This document shows, piece by piece, positions 556 to 51,029 of a stretch of DNA of 64,000 nucleotides. The number at the start of each line of letters is the position of its first letter. The first letter of the stretch is position 1. A program made the position numbers and the translations under genes. Source of the DNA: Eledone cirrhosa (lineage: Eukaryota); the NCBI GenBank assembly GCA_964016885.1, contig OZ024753.1, positions 21,142,001-21,206,000 on the forward strand, written 5' to 3'. A model generated the notes under the pieces. The model did no database searches. It was not told the origin of the DNA and saw only the letters and a program-made list of their open reading frames with translations.

Positions 556-1680
556 ATACAATAAATAGATGTTCTAATGACTCTGTCAATTCCCTGTACT
601 AATAAACACAGTACACTAAGTAATTACAGGACTAAACTATATTAACTTGAGTGTATGAGAGGTTTACATGTACAACCAGGAATTTGAATCGAAATATAAA
701 ATCATGACATGGTAAATGGAACTAATGAGAATGTAAATTTAAATACACATTATCGATGAATTTAATAGTTAGGGCATTTTAAATTAAGGAACATTTAGTT
801 TTCGTTTTTGCATATCCAATGTAGGTTTTGCTTCTAATAAATCCTCCATGGCAAAGAGGGTTTTGGGTTGAATGATACATCTGATTAGTTTTTCTATCAA
901 ATCTCATTTCACTTTTATTACTGTCTGATGTTTCTAAGGGTTTACAACTTTAAACATAAAGATTGTAATAAAGGAAATTTCATGAAAAAGATTTGGTCAG
1001 CTCCATTGAATGTGTACATGATATTGCATGTAAAGAAATTTACTTTGTTAGTTCAAAAGGCAGCATTGACTATATCGTCATAATCATCCTTATTACATCC
1101 GTTTTGCTATGCTTGGTTGGGTTGGATGGGTCCTTTTTAGCACAGTATCTCTCCCTTCATCGCCTTCCTTCATCATCTCTTCTGTGAGCAATTTTATATC
1201 AGTTCTCACCACCTTCATCCAGGTTTCTTGGTCTACCTCTACTGCAGCTTCCCTCCACTAGGATTCACTAGAACTTCTTCACCCAGCAATCATCATATGT
1301 CCATACCAGCAAAGTTTCCTTTCTTGCACATCACTTCAGATTCCTCTTAACCCTTTAGCATTCAAAACTACCCAAACCTGCCGAAATTATTTCCCCTTTA
1401 TTTGTTAAAACTGGCCAACAACGCCCACACTAAAATATCAGTCTAAAAATACCGTCATCAAAATCTCGTCAATTCGAGATTACTGCAAGATTGGGCATTT
1501 ACCGCAAAAATTAACACTTAATGTAGTGAAACAACTTGAAACAACACGTGTGTTTTTTTTAACGTTGAAAGTAGAACAGATTTTTGTTTGTGTATCAACA
1601 TGGCTTGTGAAAGTAGCGATACCAAGTTTAAAGGTTTTACACACGACGACATTCAGAATGAACAAGAAACAAAAGATAAT

Positions 1681-1774
1681 TGTTTCTACTTTAGGCACAA
1701 GGCCAGCAATTACCTGGTACTTTATTTTATCGACCCCGTAAGGATGAAGGGCAAAGTCAACCTTGGCGGGATTT
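1681..1774 (-). mobile_element. 5'-truncated SINE A with 15-bp TSD
   Basis: Flanked by gaaacaaaagataat at 1666-1680 and 1775-1789. Confidence 0.85.
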
Positions 1775-1799
1775 GAAACAAAAGATAATATTAGTGATT

Positions 1800-2493
1800 G
1801 GCATACGTTAAGAATGGCGTTCGTGAAAGTGAAAGTAAATTTTTTGACAAGTGAATTTTTTTTTTTTTTTTTTTACAATGAAAGTTACGATACACACGCA
1901 ATTGTATGGATTTCTTAATATATATATATGTGTGGGTGTGTATATATGTGTGTACACTGTGAATTTGTTTGTTTATTTACAACAGGTCTCTATAGTGATA
2001 TGGTGTTAATTAGTATTGCATGTGTGATTATTTTTTCTTATATATATATGTGTGTGGGTGTGTATATGTGTGTATATATATGTGTGTCTGTATGTATATA
2101 TATATGTGTGTTTGTATATATATATATGTGTTTGTGTCATCATCATCGTTTAGATGTTTTTGTAATATCTTGCTATTTAAAAACACACAATGTCATTATT
2201 TTTTTAAAAAATTTCCGTACACAATACACAAAAAAAGAAAAAGAAAAAATAATCACACACGCAATACTAATTAACACCATATCACTATAGAGACCTGTTG
2301 TAAATAAACAAACAAATTCACAGTGTACACACATATATATACACACATATACACACCCACACATATATATATTTTAAGAAATCCATACAATTGCGTGTGT
2401 ATCGTAACTTTCATTGTAAAAAAAAAAATAAAACAAATTCACTTGTTAAAAAATTTACTTTCACTTTCACGAACGCCATTCTTAACGTATGCC
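1800..2493. mobile_element. Foldback MITE (Mutator/MULE- or Merlin-like)
   Basis: About 240-bp terminal inverted repeats starting GGCATACGTTAAGAATGGCG; 9-bp TSD ttagtgatt at 1791-1799 and 2494-2502. Confidence 0.85.
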
Positions 2494-3159
2494 TTAGTGA
2501 TTTATCTTCAAATGAATTAGACGTGTACATTTCTGAAATTTCATTAGACGACGATTGTTGTTTTGAAAGTGAAAACGAAGCAGATCTCCAGGAGGTCATT
2601 GAAGATATTACAGCAACGTAGTTGAAAAATACGACACCAATATATGTTCCTGCTTTTATTCAAAATACTGGTCCACAACACATTACCTCCCGATGTTAAA
2701 GTACTGGATTATTTCTTTTTGCCACAAACTTTCTTCGAAGTTGTGACAGAGGAGACTAATCGATATGGCCACCAACAGATTTCAAATTGAGGAAAACCCG
2801 ATCTGTTATGGCAACCAACAGATGCTGCAGAAATGCAAGCATTTTTTACCATAAATATTATGTTCGGTATAAAATAATTTCCAAGACTGGAATTACTGGA
2901 GCTTATATATCAAGTATTATGCCGAAAACAAGGCATTTGAAATTAAACCACTATTTGTACCTGGTTGAAATGCCCCTGTTAATTAATTTCACCTGCCCTT
3001 AAAAGTCAAATTTAACAAAGAAAATCAGGTAAAAATATATAATTGTAAATTATTGATATTTAAACATCTACTGACAAAATTTCAAGTCTGCACATAGAAA
3101 ATTAAGAAAATTACAAACAAATAAAATTGATAACCCTCTTGAGTGTGATTAACTAAAAA

Positions 3160-3350
3160 TAATTGTTTCTACTTTTGGCACAAAGCCAGCTTTTACCCCA
3201 GTGTATTACTGGTACTTTATTTTATCGACCACGTACGGATGAAAGGCAAAGTTAACCTCGGTGGGATTTGAACTCAGTCCGTAAAGGGACGTAACTGTGC
3301 TGCAAAGCATGGCGTCCGACCCTCTACCGATACTGCCAATCCACCGCTGC
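3160..3350 (-). mobile_element. Full-length SINE A
   Basis: tRNA-like head (ggcagcggtggattggcagtatcggtag; B box gagttcaaatccc), core gcctttcatcc...gtcgataaaataaagtaccag, tail gtagaaacaattatt. Confidence 0.85.
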
Positions 3351-3867
3351 CAAAAAATAATGTGAATAGATAAGCATGACATTTGAAAATTAATGTGAAT
3401 GCTGAAGGGTTAAACTTACTTTCTCCCTCAGCTCATCCAAGCTTGCCTTTCCCTCACATCCACCACAGCATGGTTGCATCATTCTCTGCAGTCACTGGCC
3501 ATGACTGTATATACTCAAATATAAACAGGAATATGTGACCAAAATATAAATGGTAAAATGGGGGGGGGGAGGGGCACTCGGCTTATATTCGGGGTCAATA
3601 TTTCTGTGTATATGCTGGTAGTTTTATTGTATAAAGTATTGAAATAAAGATTTCCATACCGGAAAAGACTATACTGAACATGTCATGATTTTGATATTAA
3701 CACTGAAGTAGTTTATGTGATTATATCCTATAAATAATTGATTCAAATATTATTTTTATGTTTAATCACTTCTACATGTCAGTAATCAATATACGCTATA
3801 GGGTTTCACTTATGCAAACCAGTTGTTGTTCTTCTTCTTCTGTCTTCTTTAAAAAAGAGTATAATAA

Positions 3868-3951
3868 TTGTTTCAACTTTTAGCACAAGGCCAGCAATTG
3901 CCCAGTACATTACTGGTACTTTATTTTATCGACCCCGTAGGGATGAAAGGC
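3868..3951 (-). mobile_element. 5'-truncated SINE A with TSD
   Basis: Flanked on both sides by aaagagtataataat. Confidence 0.8.
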
Positions 3952-4301: not shown

Positions 4302-4996
4302 TGTACAGCCACCGGAAATAACATCCGTGAAATATACAGCGCCATCTACCTGTTAGCTAGTTACCTCACCGTGAAACAAAACAACCCTTAGAAGCTACCA
4401 GAATAAACGCCTACACAGCGGCTAAACATCAAACGATTATTTCTGTATAAATAGAGTGGTTCCAAACACTTCGCCAGTCGACTTTTGGCAGAGTCAGCTA
4501 GCATATCGTTGTTCCTTTACTCTGCCACGCTTTGTCACTCCCACACGCCTTGTACCTTGTATCGTTGCTTCATGTGAAAATAAATAGCTGATCGAATTTA
4601 CATCTCGCCTTGCTTCGTCCTTTCAACTTGTGCTTTCGTCTGTCCATCCTAAACAGGTTTTTTAAGGGCTATATGCGACAACAGTTCTTTTAAGGGCTAT
4701 CTTCATATCTGATCAGACCGTATGCGACAACAGTTCTTTTAAGGGCTATCTTCATATCTGATCAGACCGTATTCGACAACAGTTCTTTTAAGGGCTATCT
4801 TCTGATCTGATCAGACCGTATGCGACAACAGGTCTTTTAAGGGCTATCTTCATATCTGATCAGACCGTATTCGACAACAGTTCTTTTAAGGGCTATCTTC
4901 TGATCTGATCAGACCGTATGCGATAACAGTCCTTCTAAGGGCTATTCTCGGATCTGATCAGAAGTAGTGACCAGACTGACTAACCACGTCGCTACA
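4302..4996 (+). mobile_element. Solo LTR (Gypsy-like)
   Basis: Begins TGTA, ends TACA, 4-bp TSD tgtg (4298-4301 and 4997-5000); TATAAATA at about 4446 and AATAAA at about 4578; the host LINE is restored on removal. Confidence 0.7.
4662..4962 (+). repeat. About 49-bp tandem array (about 6 units) inside the solo LTR
   Basis: Unit taagggctatcttcatatctgatcagaccgtatgcgacaacagttcttt, containing the palindrome TCTGATCAGA. Confidence 0.9.
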
Positions 4997-5229
4997 TGTG
5001 TTAAACACATTGAATTCAAGAAGATGCTAAGAGTTGTTGTTGGCAAGAAGGTTAATCATTTTGTGGGCGTTTACCAAGTCAGTTGGAGCTTCAATGTATC
5101 CATGCTGATGGAAGCAAGGCGTTCAGAGTATGGTAGATGCCTAATGTTCAATATCCAGTAATATTGGTATATATGAAATACCAGACCTAGACTCTGAAAC
5201 TTAAATATGTTCAAATGCTGTTGGTATCA

Positions 5230-10085: not shown

Positions 10086-10287
10086 AGAGTGTGGGGGAGG
10101 GTTGAGATGGAGGCCCTTAAGAGAAGATCGAGTATAAGAATGTTAGAAGATTTCACTTGAGATGAAAAAATTGAGGACAAATCGATAGAGCAGGAAGAAA
10201 GGAATTAATTGGAGATCATAGTAAAAGTTACTAAAAGAAAAATAGAACAATATTTTGAACATGAGAAATAATAAATAATATATGTAT

Positions 10288-10319
<32 letters not shown>

Positions 10320-10323
<4 letters not shown>

Positions 10324-13300
10324 CATCGTCATTTTACGTCCACTTTTCCCTGCTTGCAAGGGTGGGATGGGTCTTATTCAGCACAGCATCTCTCCACTCG
10401 TCACGGTCCTTCGTCATCTCCACTGTGAGCTTCAATGATCTGAGGTCTGTTCTCACCACCTCCGCCCATGTTTTTCGTGGTCTACCTCTACCACATCTTC
10501 CTTCAACTGGCATTTCCTGGCACTTCTTCACCCATCGGTCATCCTCCATGCGCATCACATGTCCATACCACCTCAGTCTCCTCTCCCGTACACTACATTC
10601 TATCCCTCTCAGACAGTTTCTCTCTCAATACATTTATGCTGGATCGTTCACGCACATTTACACTGCACATCCAACAGAGCATGCTTGCCTCATTTTTCTC
10701 CAGCCGTCGCATATCCTCTGCAGTTGCTGCCCATGTCTCACTACCATGCAGCATCGCGCTCCTCACACAAGCATCATACAACCGGCCTTTCGTACGCAGG
10801 GAGAAACCCTTCTTCGACAACAGAGGAAGCAGCTCCCTAAACTTCTTCCAACCCATCCTTATTCTAGATACTATGGCCTCGGAACACCCTCCTCCCATGC
10901 TAATCTGATCTCCTAGGTACCGGAAGCTATCCACCACTTCTATAGCGCCCTCCTGCATCTGAAAAATGTGTCTATCAATGCGACTTCTACTGTCTAATTT
11001 CCCTGTACATCTACTGCATACATATTTCTCCCTACCTGTTAGTTTGCCTGCTATCCCGCTACATCTCTTGTGTACCCAGGATCTGCATTGTGTGCATTTT
11101 ATAGAATTTATGCCAGTTCCTTTTCTGCATATCGAACATGGCCATTTCCCTGACGGAATCAGGGTTTTGTCCTCTTTTCTACTCATCAACACTTTTGTCT
11201 TAGCTAGATTCACTCTCAGTCCTCTTGCTTCCAACTGCTGTTTCCATAGCCAGAATTTATTCTCCAGCTCCTCTACTGATTCTGCTATAAGAACCAGATC
11301 GTCAGCATAGAGAAGTTCCCATGGACAGCCAGTCTTAAACTCCTATGTTATGGCTTGGAGGACTATAATGAACAAGAGCGGGCTGAGGACCGAACCCTGA
11401 TGTACTCCTACTTGTATCTGGAATTCCTCATTAAACTCCATTCCTACCCTGACTTTACTGAGAGTACCTCTGTACAAAGTTTGCACTGTCCTCACAAGCC
11501 ATTACTCAACACCTCGCTTCCTTAGGGACCACCAGATGACAGATCGGGGTACCCTATCAAAGGCCTTCTCTAGGTCAACAAAGGCTAAGTATAGTGGCTT
11601 ATTCTTCTCTAAGAACCTCTCTTGCAATTGTCTCACCAAGAAGAGGGCATCTGTTGTACTCTTCCCAGGCACAAAACCAAACTGCATCTCATCTAGTTTG
11701 ACCCTTTCTCTAATTAGTTGTGCTAAAATCCTTTCTGCCACTTTCATAACCTGATCTATCAGTTTTATACCCCTATAATTGCTCCTCTCCAGAGCATCCC
11801 CTTTACCTTTGTAGCAATTTATGAGAATACTGCTGCACCAGTCTTTGGGTATGACAGCACCATATATAGCCTGATTGATGATGCGTGCAACCAGTTTAGT
11901 GCCTACGTTCCCTGATGCCTTCAGCATCTCAGCAACTATTCCCGATGGTTCGGCAGCCTTACCATTTTTCATTTCCCTAATCGCCTCTTGGACCCTATAT
12001 TCGTCAATCTCAATAGCTGGTCCCTCTGTCGGATCTACCAAGGGTAATTTCTCTCTCTCCCATTTGTTCTCCACATTCATCAGTATCTCATAATGACATT
12101 TCCAGGCCTCCTTTTTCTGATCATTCGTGACACTATGTACACCGGCATCATCCCGAACACATTTATCTCCAACAACATCCTGATTTGCATTGACACACTG
12201 CCTTGCAATGTGGAACACCGCATGCCTCTGATCTTCCCATCGCAGAACATTGGCAAACCTCCTACTCTCTGCCTCCCTGCGTGCTAAGTACACCTGACGT
12301 CTAGCTTCTCTCTTAGTGGCTGTATATTCTTCCCTACTCCCACCCTTTTTCCAAGCCTTCCATGCTAGTCTTTTGTCTCTAATAGCCTTATCTACTGTGC
12401 TGTTCCACCACCAGGTCACTCTCTGTCTGGTTGGAGCTCTGCTCCAGCCACAAGTTTCATCAGTAGCCTGCATCAAGTTGTCACGTAAGAAATTCCAGTT
12501 ATTATCTATGTCATACGTTTCTAAATCGTCTTCTTTTTCGTCATATACATCTTGAAGGGCTTTCCTAAATTTGTATTTTAGTGAAAGGTCTTTTAGCTTT
12601 CAGACCTTTCTTCTCCACACCTTCCTATATGTCTCATTCCATCTCTTGTTTACTGAGATATCACTAACAACTAACCTATGCTGTGGGGTTCATTCTTCCC
12701 CAGGGTATGCCTTGGTATTAGACACTATCTGCCTGTGCCGCTGCCTAACTAGTAAGAAGTCAATCTGGCTTATGTGCTCACCAGATTTGTAGGTTATTAG
12801 GTGATTGGCAGGTTTCTGGAAGTTTGTGTTGCAAATAGTCAATGTACCTGCATCACAAAATTCAAGAAGTCTCACTCCTTCGTTTCTTGAACCATAACCG
12901 TGCCCACCATGTACCCCAGTGTAACCATCCTGGAGCTGTCCAACATGACCATTGAAGTCTCCTACTAGCATAACGATGTCTCCGTCCTCTGTCATTGCGG
13001 TTGTTTGCAAAAGTTGCTGATAAAAGCAGTCTTTCTCATCTTTGCCTAGGCCTGCTTGGGGAGCATAGGCCGAGATGATTGTCAGTAGTCTCCTACCTAC
13101 AACTAATCTAAGCTTAATTATTCAATTACTAACTCGAACTACCTCTATTGTCTTATTGATCCATTTCTCAGCCAGGAAAATGCCTACTCCCCCTAACCCA
13201 TCATCCTTACCTACCCAGAATAGCTTATAGCTAAGACGTTTGCCTACAACTAGTCTCGCAGAGGCACCTGTCCATCTCACCTCTTGCACGCAGCACACAT

Positions 13301-13397
13301 CCACCTGCCTTCTCTCTAGCATCTCCGCTATTTCAGCAGATCTACCTCTGAGAGTGCCAACATTAAGTGTTGCAACTCTGAGATGCGACGTCGTCAT
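10320..13397 (-). mobile_element. Near full-length RTE LINE (APE endonuclease + RT + PHD-type finger), disrupted by stops and frameshifts
   Basis: ORF pieces LRVATLNVGTL..CCVQE, GDFNGH, FVDLEKAFDRV, YADD (about 11300), CSIC..C..C..VHKRC; (TGA)n tail at 10318-10333. Confidence 0.95.
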
Positions 13398-13869
13398 ATT
13401 TTGTTGTTGTTCCTATTTGTTGCTGTGCTGATAAGCGTTTTGGCATTGATACACTGGTTGGATGCCCTTCCTAACACCAGCGCCACTTTACAGCATGGAC
13501 TGGGTGCTTTTATTTGTGCCACCAGCACTAGAGAGGATGTCTTACTAGACTCAAGGGCCCTCTCTACCCCTCCATTTTACAGCATGGTCATAAAAAAAAA
13601 AAAAAAACTTATTGACACGACGCACACACACACTCACACACCAACACTCATGCATACAAACCACAACCACACACACGCCACTCACATATCAACACTCATT
13701 CATGCATACAAACACACACACCACTCACAAACACACACATATATATATATTACCGGCAGTACTGATACAAATACAAAATCAAAATCAATATCATGTCAAC
13801 TGTTGTCCTTTCCCAGTCCGGTTCAGCTTGTATATAATAATAATAATAATTGTTTGCTTTACGCTGGTA

Positions 13870-14750: not shown

Positions 14751-14798
14751 AATATTAACAATATTAATAAATGGAGAATATCTTTATAATACCATATT

Positions 14799-14858
14799 CA
14801 TTTTATTATACATATTTCAAGGACACTAAATTTTAGTGTGCTTTCATCAGATAAAATA
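14799..14858 (-). ncRNA. Type I hammerhead ribozyme with minimal stem III
   Basis: Reverse complement: uauuuuau CUGAUGA aag-c-acacuaaa-a-uuuagugu-c-cuu GAAA uauguAUA auaaaaug; stems I and II pair and the core is intact. Confidence 0.8.
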
Positions 14859-14947
14859 TAATATTCGGTGTTAAGATATTGACATACCTTAGCATAAACT
14901 TAATAGTATAAGCCCACTATATGCAGTGAGGTAAACATTCAAAATCA

Positions 14948-14999
14948 CTGATGAAAGCACACTAAAATTTAGTGTCCTTGAAATACGCATAATAAAATA
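14948..14999 (+). ncRNA. Inverted partial copy of the same hammerhead (5' strand of stem I missing)
   Basis: CTGATGA aagcacactaaaatttagtgtcctt GAAA tacgcata ataaaata; inverted repeat of 14777-14850. Confidence 0.6.
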
Positions 15000-15117
15000 A
15001 ATATGGTAGTATAAAGATATTTTAATAATACTCCAGATAAATCTTGTAGAGTGCTTCAAATCTGTTATAAAATTAATTCTGTTGAATAATAATCAACAAA
15101 CCATATAACTCACTATT

Positions 15118-15170
<53 letters not shown>

Positions 15171-15182
15171 TTAATATAGATG

Positions 15183-15233
15183 AGATTCTACAGGACTAGA
15201 ACTGTTTCATTCACTAGAAATCATCAGGAATCT
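15183..15233 (-). ncRNA. Type I hammerhead ribozyme (GUA cleavage triplet)
   Basis: Reverse complement: agauuc CUGAUGA uuuc-uagu-gaau GAAA cag-uucuaguc-cuG UA gaaucu; 6-bp stem I, stem III cag/cug. Confidence 0.8.
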
Positions 15234-15527
15234 GGGTATCAAAAAATAAATATGGTATTTATAGGTCTCTACAAGTGGTAGGAGAGGGTGGGGAGTGGGA
15301 TGGGTGCAGGTCATTGGTTGATAGAAAAGGGAATTCATTAAAAGCTAATTCTACAAAGCTATAGTTTATTTTTATTTATTTATGTTTTTAGAGTAACAAA
15401 GGCAGACAGAATTCTATAAACAGGTTCCGGATGGCATACCATTCCTTGTCATTAAGTTTCTCTTAAGCTAACAGGTGTCTATAAAATCAGTGGGGGGTCA
15501 GTCATGGTCGATAGAATTAAAGAAAAG

Positions 15528-15621
15528 GGAGATTCTTTAAAAGCTAAAGTCATTAAGGTTCTACTAAGTGACAAAGGTCACTTAGTAGAACCTTAATGAC
15601 TTTAGCTTTTAAAGAATCTCC
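15528..15621. repeat. Perfect hairpin with 45-bp arms and a 4-nt loop
   Basis: ggagattctttaaaagctaaagtcattaaggttctactaagtgac-aaag-exact reverse complement. Confidence 0.95.
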
Positions 15622-16102
15622 AAATATTCGCTTATATTTCTTTATATATTCTCTATATATATTTTTTATCTTTATTATTTCCACTTTTATCCTCCTTTAT
15701 ATTTTACCTTATTCTTACTTTTATACCTTATTATAGTGTAATCTTCCCCATGCCTTATTATACACTATTAATTATAGATTATTATTATTACTCTTTTTCC
15801 ATTTCTAATTACCTCATGTACCTTCTCCTCCGCTATATATATATATTGTACGCCCTTTGTGTTTGTGTAGCCTCTGCGCACCCTCTGCACCATACTATCG
15901 ACGCCACCCCATCTATGGTTCAGCTAACCACCCGACTCCCGGGAATGAATATGACCGCAGCTAGTAAACAAGGACCCACACCCCACCCTCCCGCACCAAA
16001 ATTAGACTTATCGTCCCCTACTTTTGCTCTTTACTCTCTTTACTCTTTGTTCTTGAATGTTTGGTTGGTAGAGTCCATAACACCAATCAAACCCCTTTTA
16101 TA

Positions 16103-16147
16103 GCTCTGATGAATCCTACGGTTACGTAAGGAAGAAACATTGTAAGC
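16103..16147 (+). ncRNA. Type I hammerhead ribozyme with minimal stem III
   Basis: gcu CUGAUGA a-ucc-uacg-guua-cgua-a-gga-a GAAA cauuG UA agc, followed by AATAAA; stem I is short. Confidence 0.65.
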
Positions 16148-16354
16148 CAATAAAAATCTTTTGATGTTGTAGACGCTCTTGTGTTCTTTTTCATATATAC
16201 GGCTCTGCTCCAAAGCATAGAGCTAATTATTATGCTGCCAATACCTTAATGGGACACGGGTATACAATACCTAACTCCTATTAACCTAAGTATATATATA
16301 TATATATAAATAACAATACTGACCTAAGAGAAATATAAATAAATAAATAAATAT

Positions 16355-18035
16355 CGTCCCCCGTTCCATTATCTGGTGGGCTCTTAGAAAACTAGGTGTT
16401 GACGAATGGCTTGTGAGAGCTATACAAGCCATGTATAAAGAAACAGTCAGCAAGGTTAGAATTAACAACGAATATAGTGAAGAGTTTAGCGTAAAAGTTG
16501 GCGTCCATCAAGGCTCTGTTCTCAGCCCCCTACTATTTATTATTGCCCTTCAAGCTATAACAGAGGAGTTCAAGACCGGCTGCCCATGGGAACTCCTATA
16601 CGCAGATGAATCAATGGCCGAGTTAGAGAAGAAATTCCAAGCATGGAAGCATGGCCTAGAATCAAAAGGCCTTAAAATTAACCTGGCTAAGACTAAAGTT
16701 CTAGTTTGTAAGAAAGAAAATAAGGCTGCGGTCCCTTCCGGGAAGTGGCCATGCTCAGTGTGTAGGAAAGGCGTAGGTAGAAACTCCATTTTGTGTCCCA
16801 AATGCAAAGTATGGGTGCATAAAAGATGTAGTGGGATCACAGGTAAGCTAACTAAGAACATAGATTTTACATGTGGCCGGTGCTCTTGTGCAATAAGTAG
16901 CAGGAAGTGCCCACAAATACTAGCTCTTTCAATTGCGCAGAGGGTTCTATAGAAATAGTGGACAGCTTCCGTTACCTGGGTGACAAAATCAGCAGTGGTG
17001 AAGGGTGCTCTGAAAGTACAGTAGCTAGAGTCAGAACTGGATGGAAAAAGTTCAGAGAGCTTATACCACTATTAGCCGCTAAAGGGTTCTCCCTAAAAAT
17101 GAAAGGCAGGTTGTATGATGCCTGCATACGAACAGCAATGTTGCATGGCAGTGAGACCTGGGAATTGTGTGCAGAGGATATACGCAGACTAGAGAGAAAC
17201 GAAGCTTGCATGCTCCGCTGGATGTGTAATAGTAATATACGTGAACGGCAAAGCATAAACGAACTAAGGAAAAAATTAGAAATAAGAGGGATCAGATGTT
17301 GTTTACTCGAGAGAAGGCTACGTTTGTATGGTCACGTGATGCGCATGAAAGACGATAGCTGTATAACAAAGTGCAGGGCAATAAAGATAGACGGTAGCCA
17401 CGGAGTAGGCAGACCCAGAAAAACCTGGGACGACCTGATAAATTCCGACCTCACACACTTACACCTCTCCAAGACAATGTCACTGGACCGAGACCTTTGG
17501 CGGTACTCAGTAATAGAGAAGACCCGCCTTACCTAAATACAAAGTAAAACCTACTACAGTCAGTAGGCATCTCTAACAAAATACACCCCGTCCCACCACC
17601 CCCACCCCATCCACACCGCCCCTTTCAATGTAAAGTTATGTTGGTGCCACAACATCCGGGCCGAAACAAATGAGATCGTGTAGGTGTCACGACAAAAAAA
17701 CACACAGTCCACGCTGTAATGTGGCCATGTAGGCAACACGGTAAAAACCTCCCAGCCCCACACTGTAAATGTGGTTGGTGTTAGGAAGGGCATCCAGCTG
17801 TAGAAAACCCGCCAGACAGTCCTCGCTGTAATGTGGCCATGTAGGCAACACGGTAAAAACCTCGCAGCCCCACACTGTAAATGTGGTTGGTGTTAGGAAG
17901 GGTATCCAGCTGTAGAAAACCCGCCAGACAGTCCTATGCAAGCAAGACAATCACTCTTGCCTCAAGTGGGAAAACCCCCGTCCAAACCCATGCAAGCGTG
18001 GAACACGGACGTTAAACGTTGATGATGATGATGAC
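16355..18035 (+). mobile_element. 5'-truncated RTE LINE
   Basis: RT C-terminal part (GVHQGSVLSPLLF), PHD-type Cys/His cluster, 3' UTR with a duplicated block of about 110 bp and a (TGA)n tail; an 18-bp deletion turns YADD into YADE. Confidence 0.9.
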
Positions 18036-18239
18036 AAGCACAATAACAACAAACTCATATAAACACACACTAGTAAACTAAAATAGAATACAATAACCAA
18101 ATCACAGTCACCCAAACGCAAACACACACACCAAACACTATACACACACGCAAACGCATACGCAGAGAAGAAGACAAAAATAAATAAATAAACAGATTAC
18201 ATAAAGACGGCGTAGACATACAATACAAGAGGAACATGA

Positions 18240-18286
18240 TAGCATCACTGACGATGTTGCAGATGTGCAACGAAAGAACTTTGTTA
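18240..18286 (+). ncRNA. Candidate hammerhead ribozyme
   Basis: CUGACGA u guugca-gaug-ugcaac GAAA gaaCUU; 6-bp stem II; stem I is weak; about 180 nt upstream of an element end at (TA)n. Confidence 0.5.
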
Positions 18287-18489
18287 GACTATATATATGT
18301 GTTTGTGTCTATATTATATCTGTATTTTTGACCGTTGGTCAGTCAATGGTAAATATTGAGGACCGAATAAATTAAGTGATATACAGAAGCGAAAACCAAC
18401 TAAACAGTGAATGAGTTCTGTTATTAATTCTGCTAATATTATTACAGCAATATGACCCTCCCCAAGTATATATATATATATATAAGTAG

Positions 18490-20030
18490 AAGGGGTTTTT
18501 AATTTGTTGGAAGTCCGACAAATATAAATGTTTATAACTGATTTAGAGCACTCAACAGAGTAGTGGAGTAAATATTCAATGATATTAAATAAATAGAAAC
18601 TATATTTATAAAACCATATTTATTTTATTATATATATTTCAAGGGTACCAAGACACATTGGTACGCTTCCCTCAGATAAAATACAAAGTTTGTTTTATAA
18701 ATAGAGACATACCCATGAAAATCATACCTTATCGGTTGGATATTCACTGGATAGTGGAAATATATTGGGGATTTTTCAAACTTATGGCTGAATATGCAAA
18801 TGAATATGTGAATAATTGAAAAACAACCGTTTATTTAAATGACTATGGAGAGAGAGAGAAGAGATAAGAGGAGAAGGGTAAAATAGTGCGAGAGAGAGAA
18901 GAAAGAAACAAGAGAAGATGAATAAAAACTCATATAACGTTAATTTGAAGGAAATATATTCTAAGTATATATCTTAATAGTACGTGTATTTACGATTATT
19001 AGTTGTTTAAAATCTGTTTATAATATAATATTTTTCTTCTGTTATAAGTGCATAAATAAATAAATACATAATAAATAAATAAATAGATGGGTATATCATG
19101 TTATAGATAATTGTTCTAATGAGTTATGAGGGATATAGGTTTTGTATTTAATGTAAATAAATATTAAGTTAAATTAAATTAAATTAACTGAGTTAAGAAG
19201 AATATTTATATTTATATAATTTAAAATGGGAAGATACGGAAAAAACTCCGGTTTAATTTATTTATTCGTTAGTGTGAGACTATTTAGTCAAAATAAGTAT
19301 AGATGTTGAAAGTTACATTTAGCCAGAATCAGTTAGTGGTTATAAATCTATTGAAAAAATATTGATAAAGTAATGAAAAAATATTGAAAAAGTATTGAAA
19401 AAATATTGAAAAATTTGAGAAAATTTTTTTGAAAAAATAATTTATAAGAGATAAGTAATTTTTAAAGAAGTAAAAATTAAAGAAATAAAAATTATTAAAA
19501 TTAAAATTAAAATTTTAAAAAAATTAGAATTATATACATATATATTTTATGAAACTTTAAGAAGTGGAATTACAGCAAATGTTATAGATATTATGATTTA
19601 GAGATATCAATATATTAAACCAAGTGGATGAGATTGATATGGAAATAAGTAGAAATATTATAAGTTCTGAATGTTGAATTCTGGCGATGTCTACAAGAAT
19701 TAAATAAATTCGTTCTTAGATTAATAGAGTTTTTACATTTAAGTATGTAAAAAATTTCCTCAATACACAATTTGCAGAATCTAGATAAAGCTGTGTTTCG
19801 GTACGCGGGTGCTTTTGAAACTGTTTCCCAAGCTAATGAATAGTCCATATCCTTGCATTTTAAGTTCCATATCAGGTTTGAAAGAGAAGTTGAAGATTTT
19901 TCATCAAATCTTTGGAAAGAACGATTGTGGTTATTCCAGCGACTTTTAAATTCTGTATCCGAAACACAGCTTTATCTAAATTCTGCAAATTTCGTCAGAC
20001 GAAATGATGGAGGTTGCATGTATTTTAAAT
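18490..20030 (-). mobile_element. Penelope-like element 3' portion (GIY-YIG C-terminus + AT-rich 3' UTR with hammerhead)
   Basis: ORF 19615-19848 has FCKLCIEE..YI.....INLRTNLFNSCRHR, the C.LC..E....LN.R.....CRH end of PLE endonucleases. Confidence 0.7.
18621..18683 (-). ncRNA. Hammerhead ribozyme variant (core CUGAGGG)
   Basis: Reverse complement: uauuuuau CUGAGGG aag-c-guaccaa-uguguc-uugguac-c-cuu GAAA uauauAUA auaaaaua. Confidence 0.7.
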
Positions 20031-21184
20031 TGAGTGCCACTAACTTCAGTGTTTAGCAATTTTTAGACAACTCTATCATAGAAACAATTGTTAGACTGTA
20101 AATAAATCTCCTTGTTTGTACTGTTGACCAATTATTCTTCACTTTTTCAATTTTATTACTCCAAGATAAGTGAAGTCATAAACTCGTCATCCACGTAAAC
20201 CTCTTGTTGAGTCACACAGCACCGTATGCTTAAACTATCCATGATAAGTAGTTTTCACAACCTCTTATCGGATTACTTTTAACGATATATTGTTATCCTC
20301 TCTCTCTCTTTATATATATAGGGAGTGTAACTTTTATTTTTTTCTTATAGCATTTTAAAGGGTCCATCGAGCTGCCGATTATTGAGTCGGGCAAGATCGA
20401 TACAGATCGAACCTTGAGCTGATCAGTGGCGAAACGCACGTCACCTACCAATAAATATAATGAAGGAGTAACCAATCGTCCTTGTTATCCTTTCAATATA
20501 TATATATATATATAATAGTAAAAAAGAAAAAACAATAGAAAATGCTAATGGGATTTTCTCATAGAATAACAGCAAAACATTTATTTACAAAAAAAGGAAT
20601 TTATCGTACCGGTTTCAGCTACGTGGGCTTCTTCATTCAACAGAAGTGTATAATAACATTTATAATGGAGTTAGGTTGTATATTAATAGGAATATGTTAT
20701 TAAATAACATGGTTTACATACATATATATAAAAGAGTTCACATATTTGTTTATCGCTTTCTCTCTTTCTCTCCTTGGTGGTGTTGACTATAATTGCAGCA
20801 GTATGTTCTTAGTGTACAACACCAAAATATATATATATATATATACAAAATATATATATATAGATAGATACACACACACACATCTATATACATATATGTA
20901 TATATAAACATATTTATAATATGTCACTTGAATACAATTTCACAGTTAAAGGACTAACATTTATTACATAACAGGCACGTATTTCACCAATGAACAGGTG
21001 AGCAATAACTGGAATTGCTAATCTGATGGGATCTATTGGAAAATTCAAATTCCAATATCTTTGTGTCAAGACCGTGATAAATCAACATCCTCAGATTTTC
21101 ACAATGTTTTCCCTTTACAAAATCCGATCACTACAATATTCACTCTCTCTCTTTATATATATATATATACATACACACACACCA

Positions 21185-22639
21185 TTACCACGGATATATA
21201 CTATAAACACACAGACACCCATCAATATCTGAATTTTAAGTCGTGCCATCCACCTCATACAAAATGCAACATCCCATACTGCCTAGCCAGAGGAATTTGT
21301 ACTATTGTAGTAGATACGAATGCCAGGAACAAATGCCTAACAGAACTGAGAGAATTTTTGCTCAAACAAAAATACCCATCTCTACTTATAGAAAATGGCA
21401 TACAGCGGGCTATAAAACTACCTATACAACAACTTAGGACAACCCAAGGAAGAAGGAACCAAGAACTGGTCATACCATTTATAATGACACACAACCCATG
21501 TCACCAGAATATCTTCAACACTGCCAAAACAAACCTACTGATCATTGCTCAAAAGTAATGAATTAAAAGGTTTAGTCACAGACCGAGCTTTGATTCTTAG
21601 TAAAAGACAGCCGAAAAATTTGAAGCAATTACTAACAAAGTCAAAGTTTGACCGTAACAACAAAGACCAATCATTCACTGTATCTAAATGCAATGATAGA
21701 CGATGTGGCACATGTCAGTTCATACATACTGGTCAATATATGAACACAAAAACTGGAAAAATATTCCCAAATGCATATATGAACTGCAAAAGCAGAAATC
21801 TAATTTACTGCATTAAATGTCCGAATTGTGAAGAACTATATGTCGGTCAAACTGGAAATGCACTATCGGAACATGTACGGGTGCACCAACAGCAAATCAG
21901 AGACCCAAATGTCCGTCCGATACCCCTGAGTAACAATCTAACAACATGTGCTAGAAAATATTTATAATATTTCCATTCTACAAACTACACAGCCCAAGTG
22001 AAATCAAGAGAAACATTAAAGAAAAGAATTTTATTGATAAATTCCAACCCAAGCTAAATGAACAATAATAATGCTTAGGGGTATTACTTCTACTATGACT
22101 ACGCCTACGACCATGTCGACTACCACCACTAACAACAACAACAACAATAATAATAATAAAAGTGATGTTGATGTTGATGATTACTGAAGATTTTTTTATA
22201 AAAACCCTAGAAAACGCTATTTTCATCATTTCTAAAAATAGCAAAACAATTGATGCTTTGGATAGGGTCAAATAGAAGTCTTTAGACATGCTCAACCAAC
22301 CCTGATGCCTAAACCAATCAGCTTTAGTAATCTAGTGAAACCACACACCGGTTGGTCGAAATACATTCTGTAGCCCCTTTTTACTGTATATAAGGCACAG
22401 ATTTTAGCCATCTCATTACAGTTGAAAATTGCAAACTTGACTGTCACCACTGAATATGAAGCTCAAGATTGCGAAAGCATGAAAGTACTTGATCAATTAA
22501 CATTTAATATTCTACCATACTATTTCATTATAATATCATTATAATTTTAAAGGATTGTAAATAAAATGAGTAAATCAGACAAAGTTGGAATTCCTTTTAT
22601 TAATATAATATTCTATACACAATCATACACACCTGTGTA

Positions 22640-22640
<1 letters not shown>
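21185..22640 (+). mobile_element. Penelope-like element fragment (RT thumb + GIY-YIG endonuclease)
   Basis: TDIYYKHTDTHQYLNFKSCHPPHTKCNIPYCLA; C.DRRCGTC; CKSRNLIYCIKCPNCEELYVGQT. Confidence 0.9.
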
Positions 22641-22678
<38 letters not shown>

Positions 22679-22984
22679 ATATTTGGGGAGGGCCATATTG
22701 TTATAATATTGCCAGAAATATATAATAAAATACACTCACTGTTTTGTTTTGGTTGGTTTTCGCTTCCGTATATTTTATATCTCTATAGTTAATTTAGCTG
22801 GTAATCAATGTTATCATTGATTGACCGACCGTTAAAAATATATATATAAATATATGCAAAGTTTTATTTAAATTGTTGGGTTACAACGAGTAAATATTTA
22901 TAACTGATATAAAAGCACTCAACAAGTATTTGGAGTATATTTACGATATTAAATAAATGGAAACTATATTTATAAAATCATATT

Positions 22985-23050
22985 TATTTCATTATATATA
23001 TTTCAGGGATATCATATTAAAAATATGGTATGCCTTCATCAGACAAAATA
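22985..23050 (-). ncRNA. Type I hammerhead ribozyme with minimal palindromic stem III
   Basis: Reverse complement: uauuuugu CUGAUGA agg-c-auac-cauauu-uuu-aauaug-auau-c-ccu GAAA uauauAUA augaaaua; flanks homologous to 18495-18700. Confidence 0.8.
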
Positions 23051-23144
23051 CAATATAAACAGTCTTATAAATAGATAGATTTAATATCGTATATAAATAT
23101 ATATATATATAGTCTATCAAAATTCTTTTATCACACACCTGTGA

Positions 23145-23900
23145 CATCATGGCTGAACTAGGGAAGTTGTTCCAAACATAGAAGCATGGCCTTGAATCAA
23201 AAGTCAACTTGTCTAAGGCTAAGGTTCTAGTATGTAGAAAGGAAAATAGGGCACAGGTATCTTCTGGTCATGCTCAGTATGTAAGAAAGGAAGAGGTAGA
23301 AATTCCATTCTATGTCTCAAATTCAAACTATAGGTACATAAAAGATGTAGTGGGATCACAGGTAAGCTATCTAAGAATGTAGATTTTATATGTGGCCGAT
23401 GCTCATGTGCAGTAAGTAGCAAGGACCCATTGGATGATATCTCCTTCAACTGCCCAGATGGTTCTATAGAAATAGTACACACTTTCTGTTACCTGGGTGA
23501 CAAAATCAGCAGTGGAGGAGGGTGCTCTCAAAGTGTAGTAGCCAGAGTTAGAATGGGATGGAAAATGTTCAGAGAGCTAATACCACAAGGAGTTTTTCTC
23601 TAAAAGTGAAAGGCAAATTGTATGATGCTTGTATATGAATGGCGATATTACATGGTAGGGAGACCTGGGCATTGTGTGCTGAAGACTTGCATAGATTAGA
23701 AAGAAATGAAGCTTGCATGCTCCTATGGGTGTGTAATAGTAATGTGCGCGAACAGCAAAGCATAAATTGAGAGAGAGACTAAGCATAAGAGGTATCAAAT
23801 GTTGTGTTCTGGAGGGGAGATTGTGTTGGAATGGACATGTGATGCGTATGAAGGATGACAGCTGTATAAAAAAGTGCAGAGGAAGGAAAATTGATGGAGC
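23145..23900 (+). mobile_element. Degenerate RTE 3' fragment
   Basis: Colinear with 16610-17400. Confidence 0.85.
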
Positions 23901-24729
23901 TGAAAGACTGAAAATAAGATTCTTGTCATTGTTGGCAGCTCACCTTACTGATGTATCAGCTAATGTCTGGGGGCTTGGTTAGGGTTTTAAGCCTTGCTAT
24001 CATTGGTTAGGGTTTTAAGCCTTGCTATCATCCATGACAATGCAGTGTGTTGGCTTGCCTCAAAAAATATTAGAAGGAAAAACCAGCACTCCTGGTGATT
24101 AAGTATGCATTGGTTCTCTCACATCTTTCTCACCCTCTCTCTTTATTAATAAAAATTGTGTTTATTCATATGAATAATTTGTAGAAAAAAAAGTCTTGAG
24201 TACAAAAATATCTATAAAAAAATAAAGAATAAAATATTACAAAATTAGAAAATATAAATATGAAAATAAATTAAAAATATAAAGTAAATCTATGAAAGCT
24301 ATTTAAGCTATTTACAAAATATTTCTTAATAATCATAAATATTGTTTATATAAATATTAAGAAGGCAGAAAGCTGATATAATATTGGTAAAAACAGGATT
24401 TTGTGCTAGAAGCAACCGTCTCCAATTGATCCAGCTGGATCTACAAGTGAGACCAGCTGTGTTCATGGCTGTTATCCAGCCATCATGCTACGAGTTTACT
24501 CCTGCGTTTCCTGTCAGTTCCTTTTTGCCTGTAAAATCTGTCCAACGATTTTTTCCTGAGACATTCTAACCACAGATTTTAAAGGTATATCACACAAAAA
24601 AAACGCCACTGTTACATTTCATTTCACCATTCCTTCGCTGCCTGCTTACCTAAACCCTCCCTCACTGCCTACAATGCTAAACTCCCCCACACAGCATTTC
24701 TAGTGTATTTTTTTAAAACCTAGTGGAAC

Positions 24730-26316: not shown

Positions 26317-27870
26317 ATTCAGCCATTGATTCAGCTATTAGCGTTAGATCATCTGCGTATAGGAGTTCCCATGGGCAGCCGGTCTTGAACTCCTCTGTTA
26401 TAGCCTGAAGGGCAATAATAAATAGGAGGGGGCTAAGGACAGAGCCTTGGTGAACACCAACTTTTACACTAAATTCTTCACAATATTCATATGAATCATC
26501 ATCATCATCATAAAACGGTGATGATGAATCAATGGCTGAACTAGAAAAGAAATTCCAAACATGGAAGCATGGCCTAGAATCAAAAGGCCTTAAAGTTAAC
26601 TTGTCTAAGACTAAAGTCCTAGTTTGTAGAAAGGAAAATAAGGCACAGGTGCCCTCAGGGAAATGGCCTTGCTCAGTCTGTAGGAAAGGAGTAGGCAGAA
26701 ATTCAATTTTATGTCCCAAATGCAAAGTATGGGTACATAAAAGATGTAGTGGGATCACAGGTAAACTATCTAAGAACGTAGACTTTATATGTGGCCAATG
26801 CTCAGGTAGCAAGTGTCCACAGGATACTAGCCCCTTCTATTGCCCAGATGGTTCTATAGAAATAGAAGACACTTTCCGTTACCTGGGTGACGAAATCAGC
26901 AGTGGTGGAGGGTGTTCTGAAAGTACAGAAGCCAGAGTCAGAACGGGATGGAAAAAGTTCAGAGAGCTTATACCGCTGTTGGCCACAAAAGGTTTCTCTC
27001 TAAAAATGAAAGACAGATTGTATGATACTTGTATATGAACAGCAATGCTACATGGCAGTGAGACATGGGCATTGCGTGCAGAGGACCTGCATAGACTGGA
27101 AAGGAACGAAGCATGCATGCTCCGTTGGATGTGTAATAGTAATATACGTGAACGGCAAAGCATAAATGAACTAAGTGAGAAATTAGGAATAAGAGGGATC
27201 AGATGCTGTTTACTCGAGAGAAGACTACGTTGGTATGGCCATGTGATGCACATGAAAGACGACAGCTGTATGAAAAAGTGCAGGGCGATCAAAATTGATG
27301 GTAGTTACGGAGTAGATAGACCCAGAAAAACCTGGGACGATCTGATAAATTCCGACCTTACACACTTGCACCTCTCTAAGACAATGTCACTGGACCGAGA
27401 TCTTTGGCGCTACGCAGTAATATAGAAGACCTGCCTTGCCTATGTACAAAGTGAAACCTACAGTCAGTAGGCACCTCTTAACACCCCAATACTCTATACA
27501 CCCCAATCCACTACCCCTACCCTATCCTCCCACCCCCACCAACACCACCCTCTCTCTATAAAGTTGGTACCACAACATCCAGTCCAAATAAATGAGAGAA
27601 ATGAGATCGAGATCGTGTAGGTGTCACAAGAAAAAACACACAGTCCATACTGTAATGTGGCCATGTAGGTAACACGGTAAAAAGTTCCCAGTTCGACACT
27701 GTAAATGTGGTTGGTATTAGGAAGGGCATCCAGCCGTAGAAAACCTGCCAGATAGTCCTATATGAGCGAGACACGGTCACCCGACCAACCTTGCCTCAAG
27801 TGGGACAACTCCCGTCTAACCCATGCTAGCATGGAAAATGGACGTTAAACGAAGATGATGATGATGATAT
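26317..27870 (+). mobile_element. RTE LINE with a 5' inverted segment (26317-26485 on -, 26525-27870 on +)
   Basis: The minus piece encodes EEFSVKVGVHQG...YADDLTLIAESMAE; the plus piece resumes at ESMAE; (TGA)n tail at about 27855. Confidence 0.85.
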
Positions 27871-48099: not shown

Positions 48100-48375
48100 C
48101 CATTATTATTTTTTATTGTGCATTATTACTGCTTTACCAAGCACAGCTCTGTGCACCTTGGCTGTCAGCAGTGTAGCTTTTTCTGATGCTGTTTCTATTG
48201 TATTGATAGTAGTTTTTGTAATATGTGTGCAGTGCCTAGTAGTGCTATCTTTTGTATGTTGTATATATTTGTAGGTCCTGGGGTTTTGGTTATGTATTTG
48301 TCTGTGTGTTTTATTTTGTGATTTCCAGAGCACCTATTATTATAGGTATTATTTCTGTTTTCATTTTCCACATTC
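48100..48375 (-). mobile_element. R4/Dong 3' end fragment
   Basis: Near-identical reverse complement of 54805-55075 (IQKIALLGTAHIL). Confidence 0.85.
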
Positions 48376-49568
48376 AATAGGACATTGTTTTAGGGTGGCT
48401 ATTTAAACTGTGTGTAATAGGACATTGTTTTAGGGTGACTATTTAAACTGTGTGTAATGGGACATTGTTTTAGGGTGGCTATTTAAACTGTGTGTAATAG
48501 GACATTGTTTTAGGGTGGCTATTTAAACTGTGTGTAATAGGACATTGTTTTAGGGTGACTATTTAAACTGTGTGTAATAGGACATTGTTTTAGGGTGGCT
48601 ATTTAAACTGTGTGAAATAAGACATTGTTTTAGGGTGGCTATTTAAACTGTGTGTAATAGGACATTGTTTTAGGGTGGCTATTTAAACTGTGTGTAATAG
48701 GACATTGTTTTAGGGTGGCTATTTAAACTGTGTGTAATAGGACATTGTTTTAGGGTGACTATTTAAACCGTGTGTAATAGGACATTGTTTTAGGGTGGCT
48801 ATTTAAACTGTGTGAAATAAGACATTGTTTTAGGGTGGCTATTTAAACTGTGTGTAATAGGACATTGTTTTAGGGTGGCTATTTAAACTGTGTGTAATAG
48901 GACATTGTTTTAGGGTGGCTATTTAAACTGTGTGTAATAGGACATTGTTTTAGGACGGCTATTTAAACTGTGTGAAATAGGACATTGTTTTAGGGTGGCT
49001 ATTTAAACTGTGTGTAATAGGACATTGTTTTAGGGTGGCTATTTAAACTGTGAAATAGGACATTGTTTTAGGGTGGCTATTTAAACTGTGTGAAATAAGA
49101 CATTGTTTTAGGGTGGCTATTTAAACTGTGTGTAATAGGACATTGTTTTAGGGTGGCTATTTAAACTGTGAAATAGGACATTGTTTTAGGGTGGCTATTT
49201 AAACTGTGTGAAATAAGACATTGTTTTAGGGTGGCTATTTAAACTGTGTGTAATAGGACATTGTTTTAGGGTGGCTATTTAAACTGTGTGTAATAGGACA
49301 TTGTTTTAGGGTGACTATTTAAACTGTATGCAATAGGACATTGTTTTAGGGTGACTATTTAAACTGTATGTAATAGGACATTGTTTTAGGGTGGCTATTT
49401 AAACTGTGTGTAATAGGACATTGTTTTAGGGTGGCTATTTAAACTGTGTGAAATAGGACATTGTTTTAGGGTGGCCATTTAAACTGTGTGAAATAGGACA
49501 TTGTTTTATGGTCGCTATTTAAACTGTGTGAAATAGGACATTGTTTTAGGGTGGCTATTTAAACTGTG
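48376..49568 (+). repeat. 40-bp tandem satellite (about 30 units)
   Basis: Unit aataggacattgttttagggtggctatttaaactgtgtgt, highly homogeneous; contains TTAGGG. Confidence 0.95.
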
Positions 49569-49834
49569 CTATCAAACAGTATCTGAGTGTGTTTTTTGCA
49601 CTATTTGGACTATTACAGGTAAAAGAGGTAAAAGAGAAAAAGGTCAAAGTTTGGGGGTTTAGTGCACATGCAATATTTTGATAAAATATAAATTACTATA
49701 TCAAATAAATTGGATCAGACAGGCATCTACACATGTAAATACATATCTACCAAAATATGTGCAATTTTACTTTCCTAACTAGGACCTATATATACTGTCA
49801 GATTTTATTAATATATTTTAGTCACCGACGCAAC

Positions 49835-50150
49835 GACTTTACAGTGTGGACTAGATACATTTTGTTGTGACTCCTACACAATCACTTTACAGCGTGGACT
49901 AGGTATATTTTTTTGTGACACCTACACAATCACTTTACAGTGTGGACTAGGCACATTTTGTTGTGACACCTAGACTATCACTTTACAGTGTGGACTATGT
50001 ACATTTTCTTGTGACTCCTACACAACCACTTTACAGTGTGGACTAGGTACATTTTGTTGTGACACCTACACAATCACTTTACAGTGTGGACTAGGTACAT
50101 TTTGTTGTGACACCTACACAATCACTTTAAAGTGTGAACTGGGTGCTTTT
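49835..50150 (-). repeat. About 48-bp tandem array derived from the RTE 3' UTR unit
   Basis: cactttacagtgtggactaggtacattttgttgtgacacctacacaat, about 6 copies; reverse complement of the ccacactgtaaagtg units. Confidence 0.8.
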
Positions 50151-51029
50151 TGTTGTGTTGTGTTTTTCAGGAAAAAACACTTCATTTCACATTGCTGAAA
50201 CTAATTGCCAGCAATGACTTGGAGAATTTTACTCTGAGTCTCTTAATGCTAATTAAACCTGGATAAACTACAAGCTAACAAGCCTCTAGACTAAAGAGAG
50301 AGAAACGGAAGTCATGCACAGTATGTGTAGCCTTTTTAATGCCAGAAATCTGGTGATTATAATGGTGATGGTGTTTTTGCTACGGATATTTGTGCTGGTG
50401 TTTTGAGATGTTTGTAATGGTGTTTATGATGATGGTGGTATTTATGATGCGTGTCGTGGTTATGATGGTTGTGGTGTTTTTGGTGGTGGTGTTTATGATG
50501 ATTTGGTGTTTTTGATGATGGTGGTCATGTTATTTGTGATAGTATTTTTAATGATGATGGTGGTGATGATAATTATGAAGATGGCGATGATGGTGGTAGT
50601 GTTTATGAAGATGACGATGATGATATTCTTGTAAAGAATGAAAGAAAGATTCAGTGCAGCATTGGATGAAATAGTTCATGGTATTTAATATTGTGTTCAT
50701 CATTATCATCATTTAACGTCCATCTTCCACGCTAGCATGGGTTAGACAGTTCTGTTTTATTTGATGCGGGAATGGTCAGGAGACCATGTCTCGCTTGAAT
50801 GGAAGCATCTCTGGCAGGTTTTTTACAGCTGGATGCCCTTCCTAACACCAACCACATTTACAGTGTGTGTTCTGAGTTCAAATCATGCTCTGAGGTTAAT
50901 AACATAAATAGCTGTATATATATTGAAGTTAATATTGATGAACCTTTGTTAGTTTCAACAATGTTGTTCAATCAACAGAACCATCCAATATCTCCCCCTT
51001 CCTGGTGATGGACCTGACTAAATAAATAA

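Follow-up and report, generated by a model that had tools for sequence, protein, structure and literature searches.

Hydra-clade Penelope-like elements of Eledone cirrhosa carry hammerhead motifs with an unpaired C at a fixed place in stem II

Why should a small hammerhead motif keep one base of its stem II unpaired, always at the same place? The question is raised by a stretch of the Eledone cirrhosa genome (assembly GCA_964016885.1, contig OZ024753.1, positions 21,142,001 to 21,206,000 of the forward strand). This stretch of 64,000 nucleotides (nt) is hereafter called the window, and its own numbering is used below. A preliminary description, made from the letters alone, listed three minus-strand hammerhead motifs featuring a C.C mismatch after the third pair of stem II, and assigned them to one lineage-specific ribozyme family belonging to Penelope-like elements (PLEs).

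Hammerhead copies in the window

All three motifs were found where they had been placed. A fourth, partial copy on the plus strand had been overlooked.

14799..14858, minus strand: hammerhead copy 1 (type I); core from 14850, C.C at 14840/14822, GAAA 14818-14815, palindromic stem III, predicted cut after 14807 (A17)
14948-14991, plus strand: hammerhead copy 4 (partial); core 14948, C.C 14958/14976, A17 at 14991
18621..18683, minus strand: hammerhead copy 2; core 18675, C.C 18665/18644, predicted cut after 18629
22985..23050, minus strand: hammerhead copy 3; core 23042, C.C 23032/23008, predicted cut after 22993

Copies 1 to 3 feature the same modules in the same order: stem I is followed by the core, three pairs, the C.C, a longer stem and GAAA, and then by a six-base palindrome, UA and stem I again. 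Copies 1 and 3 are complete as type I hammerheads (CUGANGA core, GAAA, NUH triplet, three stems, open at stem I). The CUGAGGG core of copy 2, already seen in the preliminary description, is due to an A9G change at 18669, probably inactivating, which is private to this copy (sole G at position 9 among 19 family matches, 20 loci). Copy 4 has no 5' stem I, which was removed by an inversion junction at C3. The mismatch, with further stem beyond it, is present in all three copies first described, and other details had to be amended. Stem II pairs in each, but the distal stem of copy 1 measures 7 bp with a 3-nt loop rather than 8 bp, and copy 3 has an extra C.A mismatch three pairs further out. The common stem I is not identical among copies, G.U wobbles occurring in copies 1 and 3, and stem III is palindromic in all, though the strand of copy 1 is only a wobble palindrome.

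Copies 1 to 3 are spaced by 3.8 and 4.4 kb, and each belongs to a different family. Relative to the cut site, copies 1, 2, 3 and 4 end at about +55, +147, +155 and +120, respectively, and TA tracts are found at copies 2, 3 and 4. Because they are truncated and have no tandem partner of the same family, the core of copy 2 being also damaged, the window copies are probably inactive fossils.

The bare core pattern occurs 10 times in the window, a modest excess over the shuffle mean of 4.7 (this number was reached in 4 of 100 shuffles). When the window was searched with a covariance model of 14 motifs, its own four included, only four strong matches emerged, corresponding to copies 1 to 4; the next match has E=0.022. 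A comparison with the Rfam hammerhead models had been suggested, and the window motifs match none of them at E<=1 (cmscan returned 18 matches at this threshold, none to a hammerhead family). A short repeat resides beside the TA tracts of copies 2 and 3, in opposite orientations (~18300-18466 and 22646-22835); one end of it, 22675-22732 on the plus strand, corresponds to the weak model match at E=0.022 and has no proper core.

Stem II covariation and the fixed mismatch

From genome loci 174 distinct motifs were extracted, and the 162 featuring U15.2 were sorted into 27 clusters at 78% similarity; the 12 with C15.2 are excluded from this count. Stem II pairs 2, 3 and 5 to 8 are paired in 22–27 of the 27 clusters, with 7–13 double-sided changes each. 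Position 4 is paired in none (23 C.C, 2 C.U, 2 C.A), and position 10.5 is a purine in all. Pair 10.1/11.1 (A-U in 7 clusters, G.U in 13, U.U in 4, G-C in 3) exhibits no covariation. The lineage is marked by C10.4 followed by the purine, by an opposite pyrimidine (C, or U in an abundant family; hence C.Y below), and by U11.1 and the U15.2-A16.2 pair. Stem II varies in length from 20 to 47 nt, and the mismatch is always found three pairs from the core.

A 14-row alignment is 85.7% paired, vs 66.7% when shuffled (0 of 500 shuffles as high). Double-sided changes were observed in 14 of 18 named pairs, covariation extending to every stem, and slid registers are only 28–50% paired. The selection on RNA structure proposed at the outset is borne out by the double-sided changes in both sets, and the stem II covariation that was to be checked genome-wide is found at pairs 2, 3 and 5 to 8 of the genome-derived clusters. 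The motifs are real, abundant and under structural selection. Two other folds were discarded. A shifted register with C10.4-G12 and R10.5-U11.1 holds two pairs only (by eye). A longer stem I, in which a bulged purine would serve as the tertiary partner, is predicted for single copies but is not common to the clusters.

Abundance in the genome

A hammerhead pattern with no stem II demand except U11.1 matches the 3.0 Gb genome 95,386 times, vs 2,008 for the reversed control. When a C is required four bases after the core (stem II position 4, 10.4), 89,995 matches remain, ~94% of the pattern total, which is the unbiased figure for the C. The number of copies, ~90,000, is approximate, because pattern matches may overlap. 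Of the 5,406 non-C matches, the first 100 listed were inspected by eye, and most of these differ by a single base from members of the same families. C10.4 is opposite G in 1,194 matches, many of which belong to another family, whose stem III is closed by C-G. Another abundant hammerhead family, exemplified by G000:C1:13061547-13061613, features a stem II that begins with 4 bp and then opens into an internal loop; its palindromic stem III, closed by C-G, resembles the published Hydra-1_oBim motif. In viral contigs the pattern was matched 49 times, none of the 49 with a hammerhead fold. The motif class is very abundant and is missed by Rfam, and descriptors demanding a perfect stem II would likely miss it too. 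The collection of Lünse, Weinberg and Breaker (RNA Biol 14:1499), said to hold ~150,000 variants, may include it.

The host element

Each window copy resides in a fragment of a pseudo-long terminal repeat (pLTR), and copy 2 in a longer element remnant, which includes the end of an open reading frame (ORF) and a 3' untranslated region (UTR).

14752..14947, minus strand: 5'-truncated pLTR arm with copy 1; stops ~55 nt past the cut site
14948..15110, plus strand: inverted second arm of the same insertion, with copy 4; continues for ~120 nt beyond the cut site and enters a (TA)n tract
18467..19957, minus strand: 5'-truncated Hydra-clade PLE; ORF end, ~1 kb 3' UTR, 3' pLTR with copy 2; its end, ~147 nt beyond the cut site, is in a (TA)n tract
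19615..19957, minus strand: Hydra-type GIY-YIG endonuclease, C-terminal part; CxxC..E and CxH motifs, core truncated away
22833..23082, minus strand: solo pLTR fragment with copy 3; TA-rich tracts on either side

Copy 2 had been placed in sense at the 3' end of a GIY-YIG fragment. The sense is right, but the fragment ends ~980 nt upstream of the hammerhead core, and the GIY-YIG core itself is missing from it, lost by truncation. Longer relatives encode a reverse transcriptase (RT) followed by a C-terminal GIY-YIG endonuclease, an order seen at loci L135, L287, L294 and L296. The domains were named by their motifs and by likeness, judged by eye, to published Hydra rows; Pfam and NCBIfam searches with an 808-aa protein gave nothing useful, Pfam returning no match. 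Hydra-clade marks are DKT, CxCx5C, CxxC before E, CxH after N, RWK and no CCHH (PMC8557442, section 11; statements on cited papers refer throughout to their accessible parts). In five C.Y-family proteins, some of them partial or broken, the CxCx5C linker and CxxC..E are found in 4, CxH in 5, DKT in 3 and RWK in 1. CCHH is not found in the proteins of the longer relatives, and the CxCx5C of the copy 2 family is seen in other copies.

The families of copies 1 and 3 were likewise traced from Hydra-type endonucleases, the former at loci L058 and L070. The latter is young (many copies at 98–100% identity), and its linked Hydra-type ORF was found in L037, L290, L291 and L296. The PLE association stands, as the motifs reside in the pLTR in sense with the ORF and Hydra-type proteins are linked to them, and the identity as Hydra-PLE hammerheads is near certain. 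What the preliminary description took for one family consists of three element families (endonuclease identity 53–68%), and the part of that claim which holds is the lineage-specific stem II feature.

Direct pLTRs, partial tandems and inverted 5'-truncated arms of PLE type are all present. Locus L294 is full-length, with direct pLTRs 4.1 kb apart, an extra inverted arm and a (TA)n end, and window positions 14752-15110 make up a two-armed inversion. A microsatellite (TA, TG, CA or TCA run) lies within 260 nt of the cut site in 146 of 154 copies; 73 of the 154 end 40–65 nt past the site, and 47 end 120–170 nt past it.

Some candidate links were rejected. At L278, TA/CA tracts intervene between an ORF and a C.C hammerhead lying 2 kb downstream of it, and a different hammerhead belongs to that ORF; at L280 an inversion junction spoke against the link. 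In the window, a GIY-YIG fragment at 21022-21967 (plus strand) is not the host element, being on the opposite strand and without real similarity. It is a different Penelope-like fragment featuring an RT thumb-like region, a CxxxxCxxC linker and a GIY-YIG with two cysteines between motifs (weak Pfam GIY-YIG match, E=0.0044), Neptune-like by the features given in PMC8557442.

Distribution of the mismatch

Trees were built with marine homologues, published Hydra sequences being compared by eye. Six C.Y families with a linked protein (45–68% identity) group together in a single clade (support 100/99). Sister to this clade are three proteins from the same genome, two of them linked to other hammerheads without mismatch, and a 42-row quick tree agrees. 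In the sister family at L298 (G000:C1:241210402-241215825) the ORF spans 1501-3924, and pLTR hammerheads end near 1262 and occur again after the ORF. They feature a CCGAAGA core (U4C), U.U at 10.1/11.1, a stem II of ~100 nt and no C.C. This family, likely active recently, provides a natural control for the mismatch in the same genome.

Marine relatives were sampled at 97 loci encoding related proteins, which yielded 64 distinct hammerheads under a filter blind to position 4. This position is paired in 61 of the 64; C.C or C.U occur in none and C.A in 1, and stem III is C-G-closed in all. A first metagenome scan with a single protein had yielded 0 relatives among 24 candidates; an alignment query found them. 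Hydra-type PLEs with hammerheads (L258-L276) were found in contigs filed under bacterial metagenome-assembled genomes and symbiont genomes, and are most likely animal DNA in these assemblies.

A single clade for the trait points to one origin, which would also suit a neutral accident, fixed in one ancestor and merely inherited. This explanation is largely refuted and deserves hardly any credence, as neighbouring stem II pairs changed on both sides 7–13 times while C10.4 did not, and terminal branches of the protein tree measure 0.2–0.7 substitutions per site.

C.C is found in none of the 26 Hydra rows of File S2 in Craig et al. 2021 (PMC8557442), and in none of the 56 rows of Fig. S3 in Cervera and de la Peña 2014 (PMC4209133). 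Literature searches, made largely outside subscription journals, turned up no description of this mismatch, which seems to be so far unreported. The novelty tentatively attributed to stem II is thus confined to the mismatch, since long stems II and palindromic stems III are known for PLEs (PMC4209133).

Stem III and dimers

The preliminary description had recognized in stem III the palindrome of hammerheads that cleave as dimers. The two central bases of loop III, unable to pair in a monomer, are complementary in 26 of 27 clusters and 155 of 162 copies (UA in 11 clusters, UG in 11, CG in 2, AU in 2). A purine-purine centre has just 468 matches in the genome. For a monomer, the cost of stem III closure is ~+2.9 kcal/mol, vs -2.2 to -3.2 for self-duplex formation by the 8-nt strand. 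Loop complementarity and stem III energies therefore fit the double-hammerhead model known for PLE motifs (PMC4209133, PMC3088659, PMC6765202), and the self-complementary loop supports cleavage as a dimer, as predicted from sequence.

Cleavage and the ends of integrated copies

In every 3' pLTR copy the cut site is intact, and the copy continues 50–150 nt beyond it. Integrated copies thus read through the site, so that cleavage does not set copy ends, and the templates must have been uncut, or rejoined at the cut site. Among the 40 best-scoring copies carrying the ORF start, 39 retain the whole 5' core (the ranking favours long matches). One element (L135) starts at about +4 from the site. As a rule, however, integrated copies do not begin at the cut site: among 50 distinct junctions, counted by eye on the first 100 of 474 matches, ~5 fall at -3 to +1, and the spread is -19 to +9. 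Read-through and the lack of a 5' pile-up agree with data on a lizard PLE (PMC11167929), which inserts from uncut RNA and whose hammerhead cleaves only once the element's protein is added. In that study, insertion in vitro did not depend on cleavage, and RNA-seq showed no ends at the site.

The same observations would suit a non-cutting fold, the whole hammerhead-shaped RNA being retained because the element's ribonucleoprotein uses it as a signal for packaging or dimerisation: 5' ends are not piled up, and the lizard element needs no cleavage to insert in vitro. This is very improbable, because catalytic core and NUH triplet are kept across families 45–68% identical in protein, and in marine relatives.

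Alternatively the mismatch may work as a brake, weakening the core-proximal 3 bp of stem II, so that most transcripts stay uncut for long enough to serve in reverse transcription, with no specific reader involved. C.C costs 6.3–6.7 kcal/mol relative to a C-G pair in the four window hairpins, and the read-through of integrated copies fits. Yet any mismatch nearby would do, whereas the C is found in ~94% of matches, always at position 4 and followed by a purine. Moreover, the mismatch-free sister family also integrates uncut RNA, 15 of its 17 full-ORF copies starting >100 nt upstream of the cut. A brake alone is regarded as unlikely.

AAUAAA or AUUAAA follows the predicted cut at a distance of at most 30 nt in 18 of the 27 clusters and in 26 of the 64 outgroup motifs (raw counts, uncorrected for composition). 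A polyadenylation signal may possibly lie just past the motif.

A possible role for the unpaired C

The favoured explanation, given about equal chances of being right or wrong, is that the motifs are type I hammerheads predicted to cleave only as dimers, in which the unpaired C marks a place where the ORF protein docks to help or time the cut. Two motifs would pair their 8-nt palindromes to form a double hammerhead, since a single motif cannot hold stem III; the partners may be both pLTRs of one transcript, full-length or tandem, or two RNAs that share a particle. Cutting would be slow or conditional, because the RNAs that are reverse-transcribed are uncut or rejoined at the site. The C.Y mismatch and the flanking purine would be read specifically, most simply by the ORF protein, as the lizard hammerhead cleaves only with its protein added (PMC11167929). 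In a stronger version, tentative and rather unlikely as it stands, the element's own RT-endonuclease would read the C.pyrimidine three pairs from the core, and decide whether a pair of pLTRs is cut or copied.

The mismatch might instead engage in a tertiary RNA-RNA contact, whether to stem I or to the dimer partner, in place of the loop II-stem I contact barred by a long stem II. U1.7 takes part in such contacts, and U is found at 1.7 in 19 of 27 clusters, a count inflated by closely related AT-rich families. The position of the mismatch also coincides with the end of the stem II of canonical type I hammerheads, which has 4 bp (PMC4209133). In the 27 clusters, however, neither a fixed G nor a covarying partner was found at stem I positions 1.1-1.12 or 2.1-2.12, and a tertiary contact is distinctly unlikely. 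Docking is preferred because no constant partner was found in stem I, and because a brake needs no C at one fixed place followed by a purine.

Several points weigh against docking. It is an analogy to a Poseidon-clade element in which no mismatch is reported in the accessible text (PMC11167929), and even dimeric PLE hammerheads show weak activity in vitro (PMC4209133). Fast hammerheads typically have G10.1-C11.1, which is found in just 3 of 27 clusters. The mismatch-free sister family has many intact 808-aa ORFs at 97–100% identity, and transposes well. Of the families represented by the 27 clusters, only 6 are tied to a protein in the tree, two of them by less than one third of the columns. 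The clusters are related and the shuffles ignore kinship, so that shuffle values are not probabilities; two of the searches feeding the cluster set required C10.4, and the filter required stem I pairs 1-3.

Comparison with known systems

Hydra hammerheads described by Craig et al. (PMC8557442) are similarly of type I, reside in the pLTR in sense with the ORF, and have AU-rich flanks, a self-complementary stem III and frequent U.U or G.U at 10.1-11.1; their elements likewise insert in (TA)n and share the protein motifs. They differ in that the 26 Hydra rows of File S2 have no internal stem II mismatch, and stem III is C-G-closed, whereas U-A encloses a 4-nt palindrome in the present lineage. 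The elements described here measure near 4 kb, vs <3 kb, because of the ~1 kb 3' UTR.

The motifs of Cervera and de la Peña (PMC4209133) also combine a long helix II, a short or palindromic helix III and predicted dimer activity, and form large covarying families per genome, mostly solo truncated copies. Their consensus, an unpaired base after A9 and G10.1-C11.1, is not found in the present motifs. Among their 56 motifs one sea urchin row has C.A at position 4 (by eye), and the D. virilis hammerhead has a helix II bulge rather than a 1x1 mismatch.

PAc (Poseidon, Anolis; PMC11167929) has a pLTR hammerhead upstream of fixed 3' ends and inserts uncut RNA, as is found here, but belongs to another PLE clade, has no fixed stem II mismatch reported in the accessible text, and its activity has been demonstrated, whereas here it is predicted only. 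The small dimer-cleaving PLE variants of Lünse, Weinberg and Breaker (summarised in PMC6765202) share the diminished palindromic stem III and dimer cleavage.

Animal non-LTR retrozymes (PMC7229834; bioRxiv 10.64898/2026.07.22.740005) share the type I hammerhead and the dimer logic. They are tandem non-coding repeats, whereas the motifs described here are dispersed pLTR fragments of three families with ORF-linked relatives, and assignment of the window motifs to retrozymes was rejected on these grounds. A tandem array at G000:C1:5738326-5751401, with a ~466-bp period and a canonical-looking hammerhead in each unit, does resemble a non-LTR retrozyme.

Other features of the window

The window also hosts broken non-LTR retrotransposons, presumably RTE-like, with matches to apurinic/apyrimidinic (AP) endonuclease, RT and PHD-finger, and minisatellites.

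10275-13412, minus strand: broken non-LTR retrotransposon
16347-17536, plus strand: broken non-LTR retrotransposon
23182-23982, plus strand: broken non-LTR retrotransposon
26514-27425, plus strand: broken non-LTR retrotransposon
~61476-62749: broken non-LTR retrotransposon
48211-49700: minisatellite, 40-nt unit
49775-50206: minisatellite, 48-nt unit
4623-5011: minisatellite, 49-nt unit

Significance

If the mismatch is a mere local tweak, the motifs are one more variant of a well-described group. A base that has stayed unpaired at one place across deep divergence, amid neighbours that turn over, points rather to a specific interaction. The mismatch can be mutated alone, and mismatch-free natural controls reside in the same genome. 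Should the element's own protein read it, the motifs would represent a naturally occurring dimeric ribozyme that is gated by a protein and bears a defined mark for its binding, and would provide a direct handle on the purpose of PLE hammerheads.

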